Assembly (NCBI GenBank): GCA_044352465.1
Contig: JBILDU010000051.1
Location: forward strand, 1 to 20,990
DNA: 20,990 bases
DNA from: Bdellovibrionota bacterium
GTDB lineage: Bacteria; Bdellovibrionota_C; UBA2361
Direction of reading: 5' to 3'
Shown here: piece after piece, positions 2,587-15,212 of the stretch
Numbering within the stretch: the stretch's first letter is position 1
Layout of the letters: each line of letters starts with the position of its first letter
Notes under the pieces: model-generated
What the model was told of the DNA's origin: nothing
Seen by the model: only the letters and a program-made list of their open reading frames with translations
Databases searched by the model: none
Made by a program: the position numbers and the translations under genes

Positions 2587-3561
2587 TTATCCCGCCTTCG
2601 TCTTCTTGACCGCTTCGGTCAGCGCTGGGACCGCTTGATAGAGGTCCGCCACTAACCCGTAATCGGCAACCTCAAATATCGGCGCCTCGCCATCTTTGTT
2701 AATCGCCACAATCGTCTTCGAATCTTTCATACCGGCAAGATGCTGAATCGCTCCCGAGATACCGACAGCCACATACAGAGAGGGAGCCACAACCTTTCCG
2801 GTCTGACCAACCTGCCAATCGTTGGGCGCGTAACCTGAGTCAACCGCCGCACGAGAAGCCCCTACCGCCGCTCCAAAAGCGTCGGCGAGTGGGAAGATAT
2901 ACTGCTCAAAATTCTCCTTCGATTGCAGTGCCCGACCACCGCTGACCACGATCGCGGCGTCGCCGAGTTCGGGGCGATCCCCACCGGAGATCGAATATCC
3001 CACCACTTCACCGGCTACTGCCCGATCGAACGAAAAGGTGAGCTCTCTCACCGCGCCCCCACCACCAGCCGGCTCCGCCGGCGCAAACGCCGTCGCCCGG
3101 ACTGTGACAACTCTCTTCGGGGTCATCATCTCAACGTCGGCAAAAACGTTGCCGGCATACATGGGACGTCTGAGGCTCCCATCCCCATTGATCGCAGTGA
3201 TATCCGATGCCTGCCCCGCATCGATCAGCGCCGCAACACGCGGCAGGAGATCCTTGCCGGTCGTTGTCGCTGTCGCTACGATCGTATCGGCTCCTGATTG
3301 TTGAAAAGCCTCGACAATCGCCCCCGCATACGGCACAGCAAGATACTTGGCGACATCAGGCGACTCGCTGAAAAACACCTCTTGAAAGCCAAAAGAGAGC
3401 GCACTCTCCGCAGCGAGCTTCGATCTCTCACCGAGGCATACACCGATAAGCGCGCCTTTAGCCCAAACCTTTTGGAGCTCACGCGCCGCAGCGATCGCAA
3501 TGAGGCTCGCTTTAGGCAAGACACCATCAACCTGTTGCAGAAAAACTATCACGTTACCCAT
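2587..3561 (-). CDS. etfA: Electron transfer flavoprotein alpha subunit
   Basis: RPMYAGN, VVSGGR, GASRAAVD, QVGQTGK and GISGAIQHLAGM motifs. Start moved to ATG 3561 (MGNVIVF) so that it no longer overlaps etfB. Confidence 0.95.
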   Translation of the reverse strand: MGNVIVFLQQVDGVLPKASLIAIAAARELQKVWAKGALIGVCLGERSKLAAESALSFGFQEVFFSESPDVAKYLAVPYAGAIVEAFQQSGADTIVATATTTGKDLLPRVAALIDAGQASDITAINGDGSLRRPMYAGNVFADVEMMTPKRVVTVRATAFAPAEPAGGGGAVRELTFSFDRAVAGEVVGYSISGGDRPELGDAAIVVSGGRALQSKENFEQYIFPLADAFGAAVGASRAAVDSGYAPNDWQVGQTGKVVAPSLYVAVGISGAIQHLAGMKDSKTIVAINKDGEAPIFEVADYGLVADLYQAVPALTEAVKKTKAG

Positions 3562-3577
3562 TTCCAGCCCCAAAAAC

Positions 3578-4327
3578 TTATAAAACTTTAGCTTCGTGCT
3601 GTAGTACCCGGACAAGCTCCTCAACGCTCTCCACCTTCCGTCCCCCACTACGTTGGGCCGGAGGCGACATCTTCTTCAGACTCATCCGCGGAGCGAGATC
3701 GAGACCAAGCGATTCGATCGCGAGCTCCTCGAGCGGCTTTTTCTTCGCCTTCATGATTCCAGGAAGCGAAGCGTAGCGCGGCTCGTTGAGACGCAAGTCG
3801 CTCGAGATAACCGCTGGCACCGAAATTTTTATGGTCTCAAGGCCACCATCGACCTCTCGTGATACCGTGACTGCCCCGCCCTCCAGGACGAGTTTCGAGG
3901 CGAAACAAGCCTGCGGCAGACCAAGACGGGTCGCGAGCAGTTGGGGGGTCTGACTTGCATCCGAATCGATCGACTGCTTGCCCATGAGGATGAGACCGTA
4001 GTCGCCCCTCTTATAGACCGCGGCCAAGACCCGCGAGGCGAGGTCAGAATCGACCTCCCCAGAATACTTGACGAGAACCCCGCTGTCCGCTCCCATCGCC
4101 ATGGCGTAGCGAAGCTGCGTGGCCACATCATCGGGTCCGATACCGACGACGACCACCTCGGTTGCCTTGCCAGCTTCCTTGAGACGCAACGCCTCTTCGA
4201 CCGCGATCTCGTCGAATGGATTAACGATCCATTTTATCCCGTCGGTCTCTATGCCTGAGCCGTCACCTTTAACTTTTATCTTCGCCTGGTAGTCAGGCAC
4301 CCGCTTTACCGGAACAAATATCTTCAT
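3578..4327 (-). CDS. etfB: Electron transfer flavoprotein beta subunit
   Basis: VKRVPD, NPFDEIAVEEALRLKE, GKQSID, REVDGG and DLRLNEPRYASLPGIMKAKKKP motifs (canonical ETF type). Confidence 0.96.
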   Translation of the reverse strand: MKIFVPVKRVPDYQAKIKVKGDGSGIETDGIKWIVNPFDEIAVEEALRLKEAGKATEVVVVGIGPDDVATQLRYAMAMGADSGVLVKYSGEVDSDLASRVLAAVYKRGDYGLILMGKQSIDSDASQTPQLLATRLGLPQACFASKLVLEGGAVTVSREVDGGLETIKISVPAVISSDLRLNEPRYASLPGIMKAKKKPLEELAIESLGLDLAPRMSLKKMSPPAQRSGGRKVESVEELVRVLQHEAKVL

Positions 4328-4530: not shown

Positions 4531-4767
4531 TCACCCGACGATGATTGGGGCTTAGAGTCCACAATTTTCTAATCAAGCTGTTGCAACAACGACAGCGCCG
4601 CACCGATGACATGAGAGGTCATTCGTTAAAAATGCCCCCTCGGCCCGTCCGGAATGGTGAGACTCGGTGTCACCTGCTCACCAGCGACTGGCCAGCGATG
4701 CCTGCGGCGAGACTATCGAGCGGCGCGGGCCGCCATGGCAGAGCACGTCGAATGGAGAGATTCAAAA

Positions 4768-4832
4768 TAGGCGGAGGCCCACGTTTAAAATCACCTCCGG
4801 CCAAAGTCGGAGGTGGAACGAGCCTCCGGCTA
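4768..4832 (+). promoter_or_regulatory. Nested stem-loop in the leader of the TadE-like gene
   Basis: TAGGCGGAGGC(4768-78)/GCCTCCGGCTA(4822-32) pairs at 10 of 11 positions; CGTTT/GAACG; inner CACCTCCGGC-CAAA-GTCGGAGGTG (4792-4815). Confidence 0.45.
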
Positions 4833-4874
4833 GAGCACGGCATAAGAGATTACTATCTGAGAGGGACGCAGCCG

Positions 4875-7133
4875 ATGTTTGCAAAGACACGACGGAATTC
4901 GCGGCGGGGATTTTCAACTTTAGAGTTTGCTTTCGCCATCCCGATCGTCCTCGCCGTTCTCTTGGGCCTCACGGATATCACTGCGCTCATCCAGGGGCGT
5001 ACCGCTCTTCAAGAGGGGGTTCGCCAAGGGATCAGGTGCGTGGCTGCAGTCGACGGCAAATGTATCTCCACGCGGGGCGCGAGCTCTACGCCGCTCTTTC
5101 ACTGGTTTCAGGTAGCGCACACCCAATCTTTTATCACTGACCGACTCGATCACCGTGGGCACGGCTACTGGTTACAGCAGCCCACCTACCGCTACGCCAC
5201 AGCGCGCGTCCTCGATTCGGTGCATTATGCCGTTCCGACCACAGATTATGCGGCCACCCGCTGGGTGTATCCGGCCAGTCGAACCGTGCGCGCGACTCTT
5301 CGAGAGAGTGGGGGGGCTTTCATCACCGGCACCTCTCCGACCAATCCCTCGTTCGTATACCGGCACGCCCGTGAGGTACCGTATGCCTCGGAATTCACCC
5401 TCTCACACGAATTCAATGAGGAGCTCTCGCCTGCCCGGGCCTCCGTCTCCCTTATTGCACCGTTCGCTCTGCCGACGACGATGGCTCCGTGTTACCGCTC
5501 GAACCAGCTAGACCGGGGTCCCCTCGCAACGCACCTGCCCGGAAGCTCGCCATGCGACTCGAGCCGAATTCCAACGATCATCTTTGTGCGGGGTGCCGCT
5601 CGTGGGCACGGAGTGGGCCAACTCCGACTCTCAATCGCCGGTCGCCATCTCGATAACTCCGATTTTGGGGGACAACGTTTCTCCGTTGATAGCTCGAGTT
5701 GGCGGAGCCGAAATTTTATTCCGCGCGGTGTTACCCCCGGTTACGTGAGCAGCGCATTCGACATGGAGCCCGAGTACGCCCTCTATGCCGGAACAATCCT
5801 CCTCGAACCGGGGGAAAACGTGACGGTCACGGTATCGATCGCGCCAGGGGCGCTCAATTGGACCGACCCAGCGATGCGCTACCGGGTGACCGAGGTTCGC
5901 CTCATCCCCGCCATAACTCGCCAAATCGACACAGCTGTAGCGTGCCCACACGGCATCCCGCGAAGCGACTATCTCGCCGGAAATCTCACGTGTGCCCTTC
6001 CGTTCCCGGCCCCGGTGCTTGGTCCCACTGAGGTTAACACCGCCATCAATCTCGATAGCTCGTCCCCCCAGAGCTTGAGTGGGATCGTATCGCCCGCACA
6101 CGCCACCGAGGTACTCACCGAGCGGGGTCTACGGCCCCTTGATTATACGCTCCTCCCAACGAGTAGCAGCCTGGAACAACGCACCGCGCCGTGTGGTCCA
6201 AATTACGGGGTTTCGGCACCATCGAACGGGGCGGGGTTTATCACCACAGCCGAAGCCGCACCCCTCTGCCCCGTCGTCGATCCTCAACTGGGGCGCTTTG
6301 GTATCACGCCTCATTCACTTCGCTGGAGCGAAAAAACGGTAGCACTTCCAAGCGAAGCGCGCGTAACCTGGACGAAGGAAAGTTGCAGCCATATCGAGCC
6401 TCTCCCCTCCGCTTTGCTCGCCTACGCCAAAGCGATCCGGGAGACGACCCATCGTGATTTTTTTCCGCCACCGCCCCAAACTCCACTCGATACCGACTTT
6501 GCGTGTGCGGAGTTCCCCCTCGAGCACCAGGTTTACGATGACGAGGCCCAGGGCGGTACTGTCCAACTGCCCGAGCATTCTCTCTTTTTAGGTTTCCATC
6601 CCGAACAAACCGAGGGGTGCTTACGCGAAGCGTTACACCACGAGGCGTTAACTCTGGGCGGCCTGCCCCCGCAAGCCCATTTCACGGTTGAGACCCGCCG
6701 CGTCGATACCATTTATCTTCCCTCATCTCCCACCAACTCGTGCACCGTCTTTCGACCGGGTGGCGGTGCCGCGGGAGAGCGCGTTCGGCTCACGACGACT
6801 GGTCCGCTCCCCTCCGGAGAACGCCCTCCCGAGTGTGCAACTGCTCCGTGTGTGAGCGAGCTCGCTGGATTCGCGACGCCCCCGCCTGCCGCGCCGACCG
6901 CTGACACGATCCAGGCTGCCGCTTATTGGGGTTACCAAGAGGTGCGCTCCCTCTATCCCCGTGCTCAATGGGGTTGCAGCGGCACGGAGTGCGTCACGCT
7001 CGAGATCGAAGACGGTCCGGCTGAGGTTGTGGGTCACGGGACCCTCGCCGTGCCCCTGCGCACTCTCCTCGGGGGCGCGGTAACGCTGAAATACACCGAT
7101 GTCGGCATGAAAGAGGGAGGGAGTCTCAGATGA
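4875..7133 (+). CDS. Very large TadE/TadG-like pseudopilin (class III signal peptide), 752 aa, Cys-rich
   Basis: ATG 4875 preceded by GAGGG. RRNSRRG|FSTLEFAFAIPIVLAVLLGLTD...LQEGVRQGIR gives G-1, E+5 and a TadE-type helix. Confidence 0.75.
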   Translation: MFAKTRRNSRRGFSTLEFAFAIPIVLAVLLGLTDITALIQGRTALQEGVRQGIRCVAAVDGKCISTRGASSTPLFHWFQVAHTQSFITDRLDHRGHGYWLQQPTYRYATARVLDSVHYAVPTTDYAATRWVYPASRTVRATLRESGGAFITGTSPTNPSFVYRHAREVPYASEFTLSHEFNEELSPARASVSLIAPFALPTTMAPCYRSNQLDRGPLATHLPGSSPCDSSRIPTIIFVRGAARGHGVGQLRLSIAGRHLDNSDFGGQRFSVDSSSWRSRNFIPRGVTPGYVSSAFDMEPEYALYAGTILLEPGENVTVTVSIAPGALNWTDPAMRYRVTEVRLIPAITRQIDTAVACPHGIPRSDYLAGNLTCALPFPAPVLGPTEVNTAINLDSSSPQSLSGIVSPAHATEVLTERGLRPLDYTLLPTSSSLEQRTAPCGPNYGVSAPSNGAGFITTAEAAPLCPVVDPQLGRFGITPHSLRWSEKTVALPSEARVTWTKESCSHIEPLPSALLAYAKAIRETTHRDFFPPPPQTPLDTDFACAEFPLEHQVYDDEAQGGTVQLPEHSLFLGFHPEQTEGCLREALHHEALTLGGLPPQAHFTVETRRVDTIYLPSSPTNSCTVFRPGGGAAGERVRLTTTGPLPSGERPPECATAPCVSELAGFATPPPAAPTADTIQAAAYWGYQEVRSLYPRAQWGCSGTECVTLEIEDGPAEVVGHGTLAVPLRTLLGGAVTLKYTDVGMKEGGSLR

Positions 7134-7184
7134 GCGCGCCCGAAGATATTCGGGCGTGATTGGATCAATCGGTCTCCAACGCTC

Positions 7185-8600
7185 TTAGACTGCTGCCAAC
7201 GTCTCAGTCAGCGGCGGACGAAGCAGTCGCGCGCGCGCCTCTTCCGCGGCAGCGGCGAGCACAGGATGGGTCTCGGCAAGCCGCGAGATCTGGTTAAGGT
7301 GGTCCGCCGTTTGGCTCACCAACCGGGCCACGTCCCCCTCGGCGATACCGTTTAGTCGCAGGAGTCCGCCGAACGAGGGCCAGTCGGTAGCTTCCATCCA
7401 CGTCAAAACCGTTAACGCGGCATCGGGAAGGACTTTAGCCTCGGTGCTACTTCCCGGACCACGATAATTATCCCGCACCCGCGAGAGGATCTTCTCAAGA
7501 TGCACAAAATACTCGCGCTTCAGCGGATTTGCTTTCAATGAGAAGTAAGGTCGATGCGGGTCGCCGGCGATTGAGGCGACAAGCCCGGCGAGCTCCTCAA
7601 CGGTCAGATCATTAAAAAGGCCATCGTTAATTGCTTCGGCCAGCTCCAGGACGAGGCTCGTACACAGGTTTGCCGCCCACAGCCCCTTTGGGGTGAGCGT
7701 GCCGTTCTGGACATAGCCGAGCTTCTCAAGCCCCTCGAGCGAGGTATTCAAAAGGTGCTCTTGCCGCTGCTCGAGTACGTCCGCTTCCTTGATCTTGCGA
7801 CGTGCTCTTTTGATCGCTTTTTTCTTGCCTTCGCCTTGGAGAGCACCATTTGTCTCGGCTGAAAACTCCTCAGCAACGGCCTCCTCGCGAATCGCGTGGG
7901 CGGACTTCCGATCGAGATAGGCCGCGAGGCTCTTTGCTACCAGAAAACGGAGATCATCGACGGTGCGATACTTCAAGAGGTTTAACATCGTCGCCGGCGC
8001 AGCGTAGTACGCCGAACGAAGAGGCTCCGGTGGACGTTGCGAAACCTGATGAAATACCCGCGCATCGGAGAATCTACTCGGTGCGATAACGCAGATCCCC
8101 ACCGCATCTTTGCCCCGACGCCCCGCACGCCCCGCCATTTGCTGAAACTCGGAGGAGGTCAACACATCGAATCCCTCGGCCCCCCGCTTACTGTGAGCCG
8201 TCACCACGACCGTACGCGCCGGGAAATCGACCCCGGCCGCAACAGTACCGGTCGCGATCATGAGACGGAGAAGTCCGCGACTCATGAGCTCCTCGAGTAG
8301 CAGACGCCAGACGAGTAGCTGCCCCGCATGATGGGCGCCCACCCCGGTCGTGATGAGTGGGGTATAATGGGGATGTGTCTCAATAATGACCGGCTCGATG
8401 CGGTATTTCTCAATGACCCGCTGTGTTTCTTGACGCAACACCGCCTGCATCTCTGGCGGAAGCACTAATCGACGGGAGCGACCCACTTTTTCGACATCAG
8501 CGTCACACTGCTTGCGCGCCGTTCGAAAAAGGATCGCAGGGAGAAGATCATCTCGACCGAGCTCAGCCAGGATATGCGTAACCGGAAATTCGCCTAACAT
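7185..8600 (-). CDS. Ski2/HelY-like SF2 helicase, C-terminal half (RecA2 + DSHCT-like helical domain)
   Basis: LLPAILF..RKQCD (IV), GVGAHHAG, ATGTVAAGVDFPARTVV (V), QMAGRAGRRGKD (VI), EGDVAR...LNQI (DSHCT-like). Confidence 0.88.
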   Translation of the reverse strand: MLGEFPVTHILAELGRDDLLPAILFRTARKQCDADVEKVGRSRRLVLPPEMQAVLRQETQRVIEKYRIEPVIIETHPHYTPLITTGVGAHHAGQLLVWRLLLEELMSRGLLRLMIATGTVAAGVDFPARTVVVTAHSKRGAEGFDVLTSSEFQQMAGRAGRRGKDAVGICVIAPSRFSDARVFHQVSQRPPEPLRSAYYAAPATMLNLLKYRTVDDLRFLVAKSLAAYLDRKSAHAIREEAVAEEFSAETNGALQGEGKKKAIKRARRKIKEADVLEQRQEHLLNTSLEGLEKLGYVQNGTLTPKGLWAANLCTSLVLELAEAINDGLFNDLTVEELAGLVASIAGDPHRPYFSLKANPLKREYFVHLEKILSRVRDNYRGPGSSTEAKVLPDAALTVLTWMEATDWPSFGGLLRLNGIAEGDVARLVSQTADHLNQISRLAETHPVLAAAAEEARARLLRPPLTETLAAV

Positions 8601-8603
8601 CTA

Positions 8604-9431
8604 TCAACGCCCCCGCCCGCGGCCTTGACCACCCCGACCACGTCCCCCAAAGCGACGCCCGCCCCCTCCTTCACGACGATCAAAACGTCCTCCCCGCAAA
8701 CGCATCCCCGAATCATCGAGCCCCACTGAGCCGTAAAACTTGCGCACTTCCGAGAACACCCCACCGGCACCATCTTCAAGGGGAATAACCCCCAACTCGG
8801 GATGAAGGAAAGCGAAACGAAGCTCAACTGGTCGCTCCTTCTTGTAGACGATGCGACATTCTTTACCTCGCACGTCCTCGAGCCACCCCGCGATCTCACG
8901 GGCGTTTGATATCGACGCCGATAGCATCAGCAACGTCGTGGATGCGGGAGTCAGGATGATACTTTCCTCCCACACGGCCCCCCGCTGCGGATCGGCGATG
9001 AAGTGAACCTCATCCAGGATGACGAGCGAGAAACGCTCATAGGTCCGATACAATTCGTTACGATAGATCTCGGTCGTGGCAACGACGACATCCGCGTCAC
9101 CATCGATCTTACGATCCCCGGTCAAAAGCCCCACCTTAAACTGGGGCTCGAAGCGGTTCTTGAGCTCGGTAAACTTCGTGTTGCTGAGCGCCTTGAGCGG
9201 GGTCGTGTAGATGGCCCGGAGCTTTAACTCTAACGTCGCTCGAATAGACTCCATCGCGATGTAGGTTTTGCCCGCGCCAGTCGGAGCGACCACAAGGGTA
9301 TCGTGTCCATCGACCACCGAGGAGATCGCCTCCTGCTGAAACGGATCGACCACGAACGCCCCTTGGGGTGGCGTGCCGATCCCGTGAAAGAGGCGCTGCC
9401 GTGCCTCATCAAGATACCCTCGTTTGCTCAT
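8604..9431 (-). CDS. Ski2/HelY-like SF2 helicase, N-terminal half (RecA1) with RGG-rich tail
   Basis: DPFQQEAI (Q), APTGAGKT (I), TTPLKALSN (Ia), GLLTGD, TTEIYRN, DEVH (II), RGAVWEE, LSAS (III), ERPVEL. Confidence 0.9.
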   Translation of the reverse strand: MSKRGYLDEARQRLFHGIGTPPQGAFVVDPFQQEAISSVVDGHDTLVVAPTGAGKTYIAMESIRATLELKLRAIYTTPLKALSNTKFTELKNRFEPQFKVGLLTGDRKIDGDADVVVATTEIYRNELYRTYERFSLVILDEVHFIADPQRGAVWEESIILTPASTTLLMLSASISNAREIAGWLEDVRGKECRIVYKKERPVELRFAFLHPELGVIPLEDGAGGVFSEVRKFYGSVGLDDSGMRLRGGRFDRREGGGGRRFGGRGRGGQGRGRGR

Positions 9432-9594
9432 ACTTTTATCACCAATCCAACCGTGCCCCGCTCCCGACGCGTTGCGGCTACCTCAGACACACGCCCCCTT
9501 GCGGCGACACTGAATACTTCGGGGGAGCTCGGAGCCACCGCGTCGCACATCAGACATCCCCGCTCCCAAACCAAAAAAACTTCAGGAAAAACCA

Positions 9595-10428
9595 CTAACT
9601 TCCCGCACGTTCAGAGCTTCCATCGGTGACCGTCCGAGCCGTGCCCGAGGGGGTTCCCCCTTCACGGCTCATATCGTACCGACACGCCACAAAATGCCGC
9701 ACATCGGCGGGACCTTTCGAAACAAGCTCAGCTACCGAGCCATGAAAGGTGATCCGTCCATCAAAGAGCGCAAAGACCTCATTCACCACGGGCAGGAGTC
9801 GGCGCAGGTCCTGACTCACCATAAGCATCGTCGGCTTGTACTGCTCGTGCAATTTGACGATGAGCTCCATGATGATCCTACTTGCAATCGGATCAAGCCC
9901 CGAGGTCGGATCATCGAGGAGAACGAGCTTCGGCCGCGCGACCAACGCCCGAGCAAGCGAGACACGCCGGCGCATACCACCACTGAGCTGACCAGGCATT
10001 TTAGTGGAAGCTTTCGACAGACCTACAGCCGCCAAAATTTCCTCGACCTTTGCATGAACTTCACGTTGTTTCCGGTGGGAGAGAATCACGGTCGGCACGA
10101 AGCCATTGACGAGGGGAAACGCCACGTTGTCGAATACGTTAATCGAATCGAAGAGCGCCCCCTCTTGAAACATTAAACTGACATCGGCGGTATCTCCGAT
10201 ATTGATCGTGCCCCGGTCGATCACCCCAGCGTCGAAATCCGCAACGCCACTTAAAATCTTGAGGAGAACACTCTTCCCTCCTCCGCTCGGCCCGATGAGT
10301 CCTGCAAGCGCCCCGGGAGCCAGCTGGAGCGAGACGTCCTTTAAGACGAGTTTCTCGCCGAAGGCGCGTCGTACATGTGAAGCGGTAATCATCTTTAAAA
10401 TCTCTTCCGAACGGGGCGAGAGTATCAC
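9595..10428 (-). CDS. MlaF/Mkl-like ABC transporter ATP-binding protein with degenerate catalytic residues
   Basis: GPSGGGKS, FQEGALFDSINVFDNVAFPL, LSGGMRRRVSLARAL, LLDDPTSGLDP, MVSQDL. Start is either GTG 10428 (overlapping the dusB stop) or ATG 10392. Confidence 0.88.
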   Translation of the reverse strand: MILSPRSEEILKMITASHVRRAFGEKLVLKDVSLQLAPGALAGLIGPSGGGKSVLLKILSGVADFDAGVIDRGTINIGDTADVSLMFQEGALFDSINVFDNVAFPLVNGFVPTVILSHRKQREVHAKVEEILAAVGLSKASTKMPGQLSGGMRRRVSLARALVARPKLVLLDDPTSGLDPIASRIIMELIVKLHEQYKPTMLMVSQDLRRLLPVVNEVFALFDGRITFHGSVAELVSKGPADVRHFVACRYDMSREGGTPSGTARTVTDGSSERAGS

Positions 10429-11447
10429 GACGCAACATTTGGATTGAGGATAGCCTCGAGAGCTTTTCCGGGCACTGAACCGGCGGCCTCGTTTTCCGAT
10501 CGAACCCTTGCTAACAATTCTACCTGCTCATCGAGAGTTCGCGCTCGACAGATATCCTTGCGCCATTCTTGCCCACGACACATCTGGGACACAAGCTGCT
10601 TAATCTTGCCGATACACGCCTTCGGCGGGAATTCCTCCTGCAGTAACGCGATGTAGAGCTCGACAACATCCAGCATGAGGGCTGGATTCCCTCTGAGCCC
10701 CACCTTCTCCCCGGTATGAATCTCCCGAAAGACGAACGGATTCTCAATCGCGGCACGACCGATAAAAAGACCGGTAATACGGCCTTTCGAGCGCTCTAGC
10801 GCGCTCACGCGGTCGACGACGTCCCCACTTCCCATCACGGGGAGTTTCACCGCATCGGCTACTCCCGCGACGAATTCCCAGTCAGCCATACCACGGTAGA
10901 GCTGCGCGCGAGTTCGGCCGTGCACCGCGATCGCTTCAACCCCCTCGCCTTCGGCCATACGGGCGATTTCAACTCCATTTCGGGACTGCTCGTCCCACCC
11001 GGAACGCATCTTCATGGTGAGAGGAATCGAGACCGCTTTTCGAACCGCTTTAAAGATCTCCTTAAGGTGGTCGGGCTGGCGCATGAGCTCGCACCCGCCT
11101 CCTTTACGAACCACCTTCGGTGCTGGACAACCGCAGTTGATATCGACGAGATCAGCCCCGCAGTCTTGGACCATCTTCGCCGCGGTCGCCATCCGCTCAA
11201 TATCGTAACCGAATATCTGTATCCCGAAGGGGCGTTCCTCCGGCATGAAGCGAAGCATGCCGAGCGTTCGCCTCGATTGCCGGGTCATTCCCTCTACCGA
11301 GACGAACTCACTCACTAAAAGCCCCACCGAAGGCCCGTTCAGCTTCTTGATGAGCCGTCGAAACGCACAAGTCGTCACCCCACTCATGGGAGCCAACACC
11401 AGCCCCGGGTTTATCTGAACCCGCCCTACTGAATATCCGAGCGTCAT
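10425..11447 (-). CDS. dusB: tRNA-dihydrouridine synthase (DusB/NifR3 type)
   Basis: LAPMSGVT, DINCGCP, KGGGCELM, VHGRTRAQLY and IGRAAIENP motifs. ATG 11447 overlaps the kinase stop (ATGA) and has an AGGAG SD. Confidence 0.92.
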   Translation of the reverse strand: MTLGYSVGRVQINPGLVLAPMSGVTTCAFRRLIKKLNGPSVGLLVSEFVSVEGMTRQSRRTLGMLRFMPEERPFGIQIFGYDIERMATAAKMVQDCGADLVDINCGCPAPKVVRKGGGCELMRQPDHLKEIFKAVRKAVSIPLTMKMRSGWDEQSRNGVEIARMAEGEGVEAIAVHGRTRAQLYRGMADWEFVAGVADAVKLPVMGSGDVVDRVSALERSKGRITGLFIGRAAIENPFVFREIHTGEKVGLRGNPALMLDVVELYIALLQEEFPPKACIGKIKQLVSQMCRGQEWRKDICRARTLDEQVELLARVRSENEAAGSVPGKALEAILNPNVAS

Positions 11448-12919
11448 GCGAGTTGCTCCTCCTGGCGGAGACACTCCCGAACCTTGCGCGATAGCTCGTC
11501 AATGGTAAAAGGCTTCTGCAGAAAATCGCGCCCGCCGCTCTCCAAAATATGCTGCACCGACCGCTCCGACGAGTACCCACTGATGACGAGCACACCCAAA
11601 TTCGGATCGATCGATTTCAACTTGAAGAAGGTCTCCTCACCTGAAAGTTCGGGCATCAGCATATCGAGGACAACCAAATCGAAGGCTCCCGGACAGGCAT
11701 ATTTCTCCAACGCTTCGAGACCTGAAGACGCCACCTCCACTGAGTAACCCAAGTGCTGAAGGCTGAGACTCAAAACGTTCCGCACGGGATATTCATCATC
11801 AACGATCAGAATTCGCTCGGTGCCACGTTCAAGTTCGAGGGAAGTAGGCCTCTGGCTCACCGCCTCGACACGCTCATCCTCCAGGAGAGGGAGATAGACC
11901 GCGAACGTGCTCCCCCGCCCCTCTTCCGAGTCAACGACGATAGCACCACCGAATTCCCGCACGATCGCCGCCACGGTTGAGAGCCCAAGGCCGGTGCCCC
12001 GATCTTTTTTGGTGGAAAAATAGGGCTCGAATATCCGCTCCACCACCTGGGGAGACATCCCCGAGCCGTTATCGGTGACACTCAAGACGGCGAATCGACG
12101 CGCGGCGAGCTCACAACCGTGGAATGCCCGCGCAAGCTCCCCCGGGTCAGAGCTCTCCCCGACCGCGACGAGGATCTTTCCGTCGGACACGATCGCATCA
12201 CGAGCATTAATCGCTAGGTTAATGAGCACCTGCGCCATCTTGCCTTCGACACCGAGCACGGCGATCGGCTTTTCGGGGACCGCATACTCGAAATTGTATT
12301 CCGGAGATATCGCTCCTCGAAGCAAAACACACGTCTTAGCCACCAAGGTGTTCAGGTCAAGGCGAGTCGGTCGCTGACTCGTATCGAGCTTGGAGAATTT
12401 CAAAATCTGTTGGGTAATCGAGCTCGCCTTCTTGGCACCTTCCTCAATAGCTCCGAGCGATTCAACGTGTGGCCCGGTGGCAGGAAGGATCGTTTTTAAG
12501 TACGTCGTATGCCCAAGAATCCCGGTGAGCATGTTGTTAAAGTCGTGCGCGATCCCCCCCGAGAGTAAGCCGAGGGTCTCAAGACGCTGCGATTGGAAAG
12601 TTCGCGCATCGTCGTCTTTGGACGAGCTCGCTACAACCCGAACTAACAAAAGCCCGTCCCCGATATCCGCCTGTATCAACTTCACGGCGAAACGCTCGCC
12701 GCTTGGAGCGAGAAACTCTGTGGTAAGCTCAGCGAGTCGGGACTCCTTCGACGAAAAGCTCGGCCAAAAAGCGCTCCGTTCGACCGAGGCGGTCTTCTTG
12801 CCACCCACAAAAAGTCGGAGGGCCGCGTTTGCAAAAACACACCGACCGACGCTATCGATTATCGCAATCGGCTCTGGGAGGGCACTGATGACCGACTCGA
12901 GATGCTCAGAACTAACCAC
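11444..12919 (-). CDS. Cytoplasmic hybrid sensor histidine kinase (PAS-like + HisKA + HATPase + receiver; CckA-like architecture)
   Basis: AHDFNNML (H), NLAINARDA (N), DNGSGM (G1), FEPYFSTK (F), GTGLGL (G2); receiver ILIVDDE, DLVVLDMLMP, KPF. GTG start; no transmembrane segment seen. Confidence 0.92.
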   Translation of the reverse strand: MVSSEHLESVISALPEPIAIIDSVGRCVFANAALRLFVGGKKTASVERSAFWPSFSSKESRLAELTTEFLAPSGERFAVKLIQADIGDGLLLVRVVASSSKDDDARTFQSQRLETLGLLSGGIAHDFNNMLTGILGHTTYLKTILPATGPHVESLGAIEEGAKKASSITQQILKFSKLDTSQRPTRLDLNTLVAKTCVLLRGAISPEYNFEYAVPEKPIAVLGVEGKMAQVLINLAINARDAIVSDGKILVAVGESSDPGELARAFHGCELAARRFAVLSVTDNGSGMSPQVVERIFEPYFSTKKDRGTGLGLSTVAAIVREFGGAIVVDSEEGRGSTFAVYLPLLEDERVEAVSQRPTSLELERGTERILIVDDEYPVRNVLSLSLQHLGYSVEVASSGLEALEKYACPGAFDLVVLDMLMPELSGEETFFKLKSIDPNLGVLVISGYSSERSVQHILESGGRDFLQKPFTIDELSRKVRECLRQEEQLA

Positions 12920-14048: not shown

Positions 14049-15212
14049 CTAGACGAGAGCCGCACCACGATTTTCAGCCAGAGCATCAGCCGGAATCACC
14101 GGCAATGCCCTTTTCATCGGCTTCCGCTCTGCTGCTTTCACCGCGAGTTGGCCACATGCGGCGCTAATGTCAGCCCCCTTCGACCACCGCACCGTGGTGT
14201 TGAGACCTTTGGCAAGGAGCGCGCGGTGCCAGGCGTGTACCCTCTCCGCTGTCGGCGCCTTGAAGCCAAGACCAGCATTCTCATTGTACGGAATAAGGTT
14301 GATCTTCGACGGGATACCCCGAAGCAACTTCGGTAGCCGCTCGAGATCGGCCGGGGTGTCGTTGACTCCCGCAAGCATCACATACTCGATCGTGATCCGG
14401 CGCCGCGGCTTTAACGGATACGCCCGCAAGGTCGCCAGCAACCGCTCGATAGGAAAGGTCCGATTGACCGGCATAATCTCATCGCGCACCTCGTCGGTGG
14501 TCGCGTTGAGTGATACCGCGAGGTTTACATCGACCCCCGAGGACCCGAATCGCTCAATAGCCGGCACGAGACCGACCGTCGAGACCGTAATCTTGCGGGT
14601 CGACAGATTCAATCCATCCGGATCGGTTAAAATTCGGAGTGCGGTCGTGACCCCTTTAAAATTGTGCAGCGGCTCCCCCATCCCCATAAAGACGATATTT
14701 TGGAACATATCGTCGAAATTCGCGGCGTCTTTGATGACCGCGCGAACCTGCCGAATGATCTCGGAGGTAGAAAGGTGTCGCCGAAAACCCATCGTACCCG
14801 TGCGACAGAACGCACACGCCATACCACAACCGATCTGCGACGACACACAAAGGGTCATCCGTTGCGGTTGCTTAATCATGACCGATTCGACGTTGTCACC
14901 CGCAGACACCTCGAGGAGATACTTCCGGGTACCATCGGCACTGATCTGGCGATCGGATATTCCAGCCTCAGGAAAGATGAAAAGCTTTTGAAGCTCCTCA
15001 CGAAGCTCACGCTTGATGTTCGTCATCGCGGAGAGGTCGGTGACCCCCTGCCGATATATCCACTGGAACAGCTGTTTTGCCCGGTAAGCCGGCTCGCCGA
15101 AACGCTCATGCAGGAGCGCCGCGAGCTCATCCTGGGATAAGGCAAAAAAATCTACCTGCGGAGCAGGCGCCGCTCCGGTCGACTCGGGGAGAATCGGTAA
15201 CGACGCCGTCAT
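14049..15212 (-). CDS. rlmN: Radical-SAM 23S rRNA/tRNA m2A methyltransferase RlmN
   Basis: DGTRKYL, LCVSSQIGCGMACAFC (CxxxCxxC), MGMGEP, LAVSL, NLIPYN, AACGQL; adjacent to ndk. Confidence 0.95.
   Translation of the reverse strand: MTASLPILPESTGAAPAPQVDFFALSQDELAALLHERFGEPAYRAKQLFQWIYRQGVTDLSAMTNIKRELREELQKLFIFPEAGISDRQISADGTRKYLLEVSAGDNVESVMIKQPQRMTLCVSSQIGCGMACAFCRTGTMGFRRHLSTSEIIRQVRAVIKDAANFDDMFQNIVFMGMGEPLHNFKGVTTALRILTDPDGLNLSTRKITVSTVGLVPAIERFGSSGVDVNLAVSLNATTDEVRDEIMPVNRTFPIERLLATLRAYPLKPRRRITIEYVMLAGVNDTPADLERLPKLLRGIPSKINLIPYNENAGLGFKAPTAERVHAWHRALLAKGLNTTVRWSKGADISAACGQLAVKAAERKPMKRALPVIPADALAENRGAALV

Follow-up and report, generated by a model that had tools for sequence, protein, structure and literature searches.

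A predicted two-subunit Ski2/Mtr4-like helicase encoded by adjacent genes across a bacterial phylum

Two adjacent ORFs divide one helicase core

A 20,990-nucleotide stretch of DNA from a Bdellovibrionota bacterium (GTDB lineage Bacteria; Bdellovibrionota_C; UBA2361; assembly GCA_044352465.1, contig JBILDU010000051.1, positions 1 to 20,990), called the window below, carries on its minus strand two adjacent open reading frames (ORFs) that resemble the two parts of a single helicase of superfamily 2 (SF2). ORF1 would encode subunit A, built around the first RecA-like domain (RecA1), and ORF2 would encode subunit B, with the remainder of the second RecA-like domain (RecA2) and a C-terminal DSHCT domain (Table 1). 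The minus-strand letters at the junction are ...GGG CGT TGA TAG ATG TTA GGC..., with CGT at 8609-8607, and re-reading them reproduced the stop-stop-start arrangement at 8606-8598 that an initial annotation of the window had described. Both ORFs, of 275 and 471 amino acids (aa), run without interruption in the ORF list of the window and are intact, as that annotation had also stated.

Complementary parts of a helicase are recognized in the two products. In Pfam, ORF1 matches DEAD (PF00270) with 90.6 bits over residues 30-178, and ORF2 matches DSHCT (PF08148) over residues 300-463 with 64 bits (cut-off, 22.7), together with a weak Helicase_C match of 22.5 bits, just below the cut-off of 23.5. 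An alignment of 64 homologue pairs places motifs Q (F26, D29, F31, and Q32), I (APTGAGKT, 49-56), Ia (TTPLKALSN), II (DEVH, 140-143), and III (SAS, 171-173) in ORF1, and motifs IV (LLPAILF, 19-25), HHAG (90-93), V (TGTVAAGVDFPAR, 117-129), and VI (QMAGRAGRRGKD, 154-165) in ORF2; these are what we take the motifs to be from the general scheme of SF2 helicases. The full SF2 DExH motif set is kept, at least 90 to 98% conserved, and divided over two ORFs. Alignment and Pfam agree with the division first proposed for the window, namely motifs Q, I, Ia, II, and III in ORF1 and motifs IV, V, and VI plus a DSHCT-like domain in ORF2.

The best relatives of both halves among solved structures are Mtr4/Dob1, Ski2, and FRH. 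ORF1 matches Mtr4/Dob1 over residues 25-213 (E value, 1e-41), and ORF2 matches human MTR4 (E value, 2e-29) in two blocks, with residues 17-229 aligned to 315-524 and residues 263-441 aligned to 763-941. Between these blocks ORF2 passes from 229 to 263 where human MTR4 runs from 524 to 763, so that the arch insertion of ~240 residues is missing, and the Pfam scan gave no arch-type domain in ORF1 or ORF2. By their nearest solved relatives and the DSHCT domain, ORF1 and ORF2 together belong to the Ski2-like family, and an RNA-dependent 3'-to-5' ATPase/helicase function would be expected from homology. Where this family usually has a single polypeptide, the window has two ORFs, and so does each of the 65 informative loci described below. 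Two other identities were considered and rejected. Hel308 (NCBIfam NF040935) was set aside because the two halves score 97.9 and 68.5 bits, far under the curated equivalog cut-off of 1200. A split intein with trans-splicing was also set aside, since no intein (Hint) family matched ORF1 or ORF2 in the Pfam scan and the end of ORF1 is a low-complexity Arg/Gly tail.

Table 1. Positions of the two helicase ORFs, their parts, and neighboring genes in the window
Feature	Position	Strand	Description
ORF1, putative helicase subunit A, 275 aa	8604..9431	minus	RecA1 core (motifs Q, I, Ia, II, III), then arm and basic tail
ORF1 arm, residues 200-249	8685..8834	minus	RPVELRFAFLHP strand, next strands, and helix; packs on ORF2 in the heterodimer model
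ORF1 Arg/Gly-rich tail, residues 250-275 (…GGRFDRREGGGGRRFGGRGRGGQGRGRGR)	8607..8684	minus	Predicted disordered
G-rich run GGGCGGGGG	8610..8618	minus	10-20 nt upstream of the ORF2 ATG, within the last Arg/Gly codons of ORF1
ORF1 TGA stop	8606-8604	minus	
Junction	8598..8606	minus	TGA (8606-8604), TAG (8603-8601), ATG (8600-8598)
ORF2, putative helicase subunit B, 471 aa	7185..8600	minus	Remainder of RecA2 (motifs IV, V, VI; ~residues 1-230), helical region, DSHCT
ORF2 DSHCT part, residues 300-463	7212-7703	minus	Pfam
Single-domain ABC (ATP-binding cassette) ATPase	9595..10428	minus	No adjacent permease; conserved directly upstream of ORF1
DusB	10425-11474	minus	
Hybrid histidine kinase/response regulator, CckA-like	11444-12919	minus	
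Long ORF, 862 aa from first TTG	4545-7133	plus	Converges on ORF2
RlmN-like radical S-adenosylmethionine methyltransferase	14049-15212	minus	Housekeeping neighbor
Electron transfer flavoprotein alpha and beta subunits	2587-4327	minus	Housekeeping neighbors

The split is retained across the phylum

The phylum of the window was sampled with 124 species genomes of a single class. ORF2 homologues are present in 120 of them, with none missing among the 73 genomes of at least 90% completeness; the four genomes with no match are 55 to 84% complete. The open frame around each full-length ORF2 match spans 452 to 552 aa and never reaches the size of a fusion (at least 700 aa). The genome of the window has exactly one match per half. 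Among 67 distinct loci examined, 65 have a separate ORF1 homologue immediately upstream and on the same strand, and the other two (L031 and L067) end at a contig edge. The junctions themselves are diverse: relative to ORF1, the frame of ORF2 is 0 in 17, +1 in 6, and +2 in 42 of the 65 loci, and the ORF1 stop, recorded for 46 loci, is TAA in 20, TAG in 20, and TGA in 6. Stop and start are nonetheless close, -13 to +9 nt apart in 61 of 65 loci, with TAATG, TGATG, and ATGA as typical overlaps.

Both halves are under strong purifying selection. The ratio of nonsynonymous to synonymous substitution rates (dN/dS; Nei-Gojobori, 8 close pairs) is 0.00 to 0.027 in the ORF1 core and 0.012 to 0.037 in ORF2, and it ranges from 0 to 0.24 in the ORF1 tail. 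Assembled contigs of four sequencing runs were compared at the junction. Contigs from three of them (X6, X7, and X8), which come from three other studies, bridge 8595-8610 with identical letters and have no indels across 7100-9600; the pieces from the fourth (X5) end at 8581 and begin at 8585 and do not span the junction. One of the bridging contigs, 98 kb long, represents a strain ~1.5% diverged with 38 differences, of which all 10 in ORF1 and 17 of the 23 in ORF2 affect third codon positions. The exact 471-aa ORF2 protein occurs on 5 contigs from four sources, and in a metagenome-assembled genome (MAG) of the same genus the pair is annotated as two "hypothetical proteins" side by side.

Could the break be an artefact of sequencing or assembly, or a recent lesion in which a nonsense mutation has left a pseudogene? 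Two stops within a normally continuous gene do look like a lesion, but the split is found in every informative genome of the phylum with stops and frames that vary among relatives, dN/dS is 0.00 to 0.04 in both halves, and the same junction and the same protein recur in the independent contigs described above. The initial annotation had argued that neither a sequencing error nor a nonsense mutation would produce such a junction, and had asked whether relatives keep the split and whether each half is selected; conservation and dN/dS bear it out on both counts, and the probability of an error or lesion is negligible.

Another explanation is that a fused protein is still produced, through stop codon read-through or programmed frameshifting. 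The two ORFs do share a frame in the window, as they do in 16 other loci. The window, however, has two consecutive stops, TGA TAG, and 48 of 65 loci would require a +1 or +2 shift at stops that differ (TAA, TAG, or TGA), with no slippery or recoding context in common. Since frame offsets vary among loci (0, +1, and +2), read-through cannot account for a fusion, and the variety of frames and stops means that there is no common recoding signal; relatives with swapped or unlinked genes, described below, are unable to make such a fusion at all. Production of a fused protein is therefore very improbable, if somewhat less so than a lesion, and sequencing error, recent nonsense mutation, and read-through fusion are excluded for practical purposes.

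The cut falls inside a flexible basic loop

The initial annotation placed the cut exactly between RecA1 and RecA2, at a domain linker. This holds approximately but not to the residue, and the linker is not a clean one. Folded alone, ORF1 gives a confident RecA1 core, strands at 207-210 and 214-217, and a helix at 227-234, and residues 250-269 have a predicted local distance difference test score (pLDDT) below 50; in this model ~50 structured residues would lie beyond the RecA1 core, followed by a disordered tail of ~26 residues. In fused relatives, the RPVxL strand and the LLPAI strand (motif IV) are 56 to 83 residues apart, and in the window the corresponding span is 94 residues across the cut. 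The loop that lies within this span in fused relatives is long, variable, and often basic, commonly rich in Arg and Gly, as in "RFGGGRGGG" of L095 and "NGRGGRFTRAW" of P0073. Because the same span already holds such a loop in fused relatives, the gene is, on this sequence comparison, cut inside a pre-existing flexible basic loop, with ORF1 retaining the RPVxL strand and an arm of ~50 residues.

Over the whole phylum, the tail beyond the arm has a median of 29 residues (range, 0 to 53) and consists of 33% Arg, 32% Gly, and 10% Ser. The Arg/Gly codons of ORF1 also provide purines in front of ORF2. A Shine-Dalgarno (SD)-like core of at least 4 nt at -18 to -4 precedes ORF2 in 42 of 64 loci versus 13% of control windows, and a core of at least 5 nt does so in 30 of 64 loci versus 3% of control windows.

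The same break in other lineages

An exhaustive profile-free search with ORF2 over 1.84 billion representatives separated split from fused forms by score. All matches above 321 bits are at most 485 aa long; the next step, at 209 bits, is the first long (fused) protein, with 35% identity. From 209 bits down, proteins are mostly 660 to 1200 aa, and ORF2 aligns from about residue 250-470 onward. Some of these matches begin with Met just ahead of LLPAI, and one such form of 621 aa has 8 cluster members of equal length.

The matches were used to collect 80 further genome loci. In Acidobacteriota (Blastocatellia/Pyrinomonadaceae), ~33 loci have a RecA1 gene upstream at -20 to ~+1240 nt, 7 have fused genes of 852 to 996 aa, and 28 have no RecA1 gene in the upstream flank (at most 2.5 kb, some flanks ending at contig edges). 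Desulfobacterota contributed 5 loci with fused genes of 661 to 862 aa. In Nitrospira the order is swapped in 5 of 5 loci, the RecA1 ORF beginning at or just past the stop of the RecA2-DSHCT gene. One of these, L144, had appeared fused and was rejected as a coincidence of frame in a swapped-order locus; L144, L114 (ambiguous), and L143 (cut by a contig end) were not counted as fused. Full unlinking also occurs: a complete Pyrinomonadaceae chromosome of 4.27 Mb has its sole RecA1 match ~44 kb from the RecA2 gene and on the opposite strand, another genome would have the two ~185 kb apart if they are on one contig, and five further Acidobacteriota genomes carry the RecA1 gene and the RecA2 gene on different contigs, one of these being a MAG with two RecA2 genes. 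Swapped and unlinked arrangements mean that the halves are separable genes.

Several lineage-specific features accompany these arrangements. The Nitrospira RecA1 proteins (L138, L141, L144, L145, and L148) share a conserved N-terminal extension of ~110 aa (…TTHELEQLL.QPVSLLHRLARGR…) that is missing from ORF1 of the window. Within Acidobacteriota (L069-L137), a long RecA2-DSHCT form of ~621 aa carries an insert of ~190 aa, possibly arch-like, and a short form of 423 to 450 aa is unlinked from RecA1 in every locus seen.

Phylogeny of the RecA2-DSHCT part was estimated by maximum likelihood from 119 rows (LG+G4, quick search, midpoint root), with support from the Shimodaira-Hasegawa-like approximate likelihood ratio test (SH-aLRT) and leaving out L114, L119, L090, L134, L137, L085, L080, L143, and L096 as well as any product shorter than 400 aa. 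The phylum of the window forms one clade (SH-aLRT, 100), with weak support (88) for an Acidobacteriota clade (100) as its sister; in the latter, fused forms are nested within the split ones. Outside these lie the Nitrospira clade (100) and one made up of fused proteins (100). Fused forms nested among split ones, together with these separate clades, indicate that fission or fusion occurred more than once at the same loop. With a midpoint root and a sister support of 88, the tree does not settle between one old fission with later re-fusions and several fissions.

Predicted association of the two halves

ORF2 and ORF1 were folded together with an alignment of 31 rows per chain. The pair reached an interaction prediction score from aligned errors (ipSAE) of 0.78 (runs, 0.77, 0.78, and 0.79) versus 0.00 for the best of three controls, the partner pLDDT is at least 77, and contacts agree between runs to at least 78%. 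Of 157 solved complexes, 116 reach the ipSAE mark applied here, as do 2 of 215 mismatched pairs. The contacts of lowest predicted error join ORF1 203-209 to ORF2 168-173 in a manner like strand addition, the RPVxL strand being paired in the model with the RecA2 sheet of ORF2, and the P-loop of ORF1 (50-52) and its residues 143-149 face ORF2 156-163, which is motif VI. The modeled arrangement is the one expected from single-chain homologues, and the complex prediction supports the proposal, made from the window, that the two products are subunits of one enzyme.

Might the halves instead work separately or with other partners, RecA1 for example as a free ATPase? The unlinked genes of some Acidobacteriota would suit such independence, as would the one MAG with two genes of the RecA2 type and a single RecA1 gene. 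A lone RecA1 half, however, has no motif VI and a lone RecA2 half has no P-loop, all 65 informative loci of the phylum have the two genes side by side, 4 of the 5 further Acidobacteriota genomes checked have one of each, and the model sets motif VI against the P-loop. Independent functions are improbable on this evidence, and association of the two halves is preferred.

A motor assembled from two polypeptides

We propose that ORF1 and ORF2 each encode one subunit of a single Ski2/Mtr4-like DExH helicase and that one mRNA carries both genes. Translation of ORF2 is probably coupled to that of ORF1, because the ORF1 stop and the ORF2 start are no more than a few bases apart. Once made, the subunits would associate through the RPVxL strand and arm of A, which would complete the RecA2 fold of B, and in the model the ATP site would form in trans, from motifs I and II of A with motif VI of B. 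The basic tail of A is likely to act as an auxiliary RNA-binding element. That the pair is such an obligate two-subunit helicase, made from one mRNA, with the arm of A completing the RecA2 fold of B and an ATP site in trans, is quite probable. The selected, translationally coupled, two-subunit helicase put forward in the initial annotation thus finds support in conservation, dN/dS, independent contigs, and the complex model; the clean domain linker that went with it is replaced by a variable basic loop.

Several observations weigh against this proposal. Four loci have wider gaps between the genes, of 45, 66, 96, and 438 nt, so that tight coupling is not universal, and gap sizes are approximate since ORF2 starts in relatives were set by rule (nearest ATG, GTG, or TTG to the aligned N terminus). 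None of the 20 runs listed as containing the stretch is an RNA data set. The most divergent family (L049 and L050) has no tail, its genes overlapping by 11 to 13 nt, and for this reason the split does not depend on the tail. In the window, the SD criteria give a score of 0, with just a G-run and no canonical GGAGG, though the run GGGCGGGGG might serve in ribosome binding. Family likeness alone points to RNA as the substrate. Calibration of the complex prediction did not include custom alignments of the kind used here, and since the arrangement matches that of single-chain homologues, the high score may be a memory of solved single-chain Mtr4, Ski2, and Hel308 structures, reflecting likeness rather than binding.

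The widest of these gaps, in L008, goes with a duplicated junction. A tandem repeat of 219 bp (positions 1008-1628 of L008, on G018:C4; 2.8 copies, 98% identity) copies the end of ORF1, its stop, and about the first 50 to 60 codons of ORF2, and the full-length ORF2 starts 438 nt after the ORF1 stop.

How did the split arise, and is it of use? Most likely, a fission was tolerated at a permissive site and has been retained since the ancestor of the phylum. A functional split, in which the heterodimer is real and its assembly, its stoichiometry, or the free basic C terminus gates helicase activity, is the less favored possibility, although of all the alternatives it deserves the most weight. It would explain why no re-fusion is seen in 120 genomes, even though the 17 in-frame loci need the loss of just one or two stops, and why a basic tail under some constraint (dN/dS, 0 to 0.24) is present in all but one family. 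On the other side, fused forms are nested within split ones in the sister Acidobacteriota clade, which suggests that both states work. The absence of re-fusion hints at selection, and the sister clade, with its fused forms, at neutrality. The existence of fused, linked, swapped, and unlinked relatives fits fission at a permissive site at least as well as it fits regulatory assembly.

Comparison with known helicases

In the usual picture, an SF2 helicase is one chain, with two RecA-like domains tethered to each other and an ATP site that closes between them. A natural two-gene division of an SF2 helicase-nuclease is that of Cas3' and Cas3'' in type I CRISPR systems, which sets the HD nuclease apart from an intact helicase core; that cut spares the core, whereas the cut in the window runs through the motor. 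Closest to the pair outside the split clades are bacterial fused Ski2-like/DSHCT helicases, presumably HelY-type, which are 660 to 1000 aa long and are matched by ORF2 from about residue 250-350 onward. They have 33 to 37% identity and the same RPVxL…LLPAI layout but are one polypeptide, with the loop continuous where in the window it is cut. The eukaryotic Mtr4/Dob1, Ski2, and FRH proteins resemble the pair in their motif set and in the DSHCT C-terminal domain, but they are single chains of ~1000 to 1290 aa, whereas the pair has its core on two polypeptides. The domain plan of Mtr4 includes an arch insertion of 265 aa in the winged helix (PMC3384339). ORF2 of the window has no such insertion in the winged-helix domain, where Mtr4 and Ski2 proper carry a stalk plus a KOW or beta-barrel part.

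Literature searches found no published natural split between RecA1 and RecA2 in titles and abstract openings, and the nearest precedent that came up is in Nanoarchaeota, where the genes for a "large helicase-related protein" (NEQ003/NEQ409) and reverse gyrase are in two pieces (PMC3655853). These SF2-type genes share two-piece encoding with the pair in the window but differ in being archaeal, of other families, unlinked, and located in the reduced genomes of symbionts, and the literature searches brought up no biochemical work on them.

The split is a well-supported genomic fact, and the biochemical function would be the one predicted from homology. If the proposal is right, the pair would be a natural tether-free SF2 motor conserved over the lifetime of the phylum. 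Its fused, linked, order-swapped, and unlinked relatives would then offer a ready system for the role of the covalent link in coupling ATP hydrolysis to translocation, and the same system bears on whether assembly can regulate a helicase. There is also a consequence for annotation, as such genes are now listed as "hypothetical protein" or truncated helicases and could be mistaken for pseudogenes.

Gene neighborhood

The helicase genes close a minus-strand cluster at 7185-12919 whose order, a kinase, DusB, an ABC ATPase, and the two helicase genes, is kept across the phylum (Table 1). Wherever the flank extends far enough to show it (63 of 63 loci), the ABC ATPase gene comes immediately upstream and on the same strand, and in 13 diverse genomes the cluster genes were found in 13 (ABC ATPase), 10 (DusB), and 12 (kinase) cases. 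ABC ATPase genes near the helicase in other phyla have weak identity (27 to 33%), lie on the other strand or are not adjacent, and were treated as unrelated. A much broader scheme can be drawn: bacteria would have an entire family of Ski2/Mtr4-like helicases with a motor made of two exchangeable polypeptides, and the phylum would keep the split on purpose, with the free Arg/Gly tail of the RecA1 subunit and the supply and assembly of subunits gating the helicase, maybe within a cluster of kinase, DusB, ABC ATPase, and helicase for tRNA/rRNA quality control. We regard this scheme as unlikely, and more so than a functional split by itself.

On the other side, the long ORF at 4545-7133 is next to the helicase in just 4 of 67 loci, and the one family match in it is TadE-like, to an N-terminal segment (residues 122-164, 28 bits).

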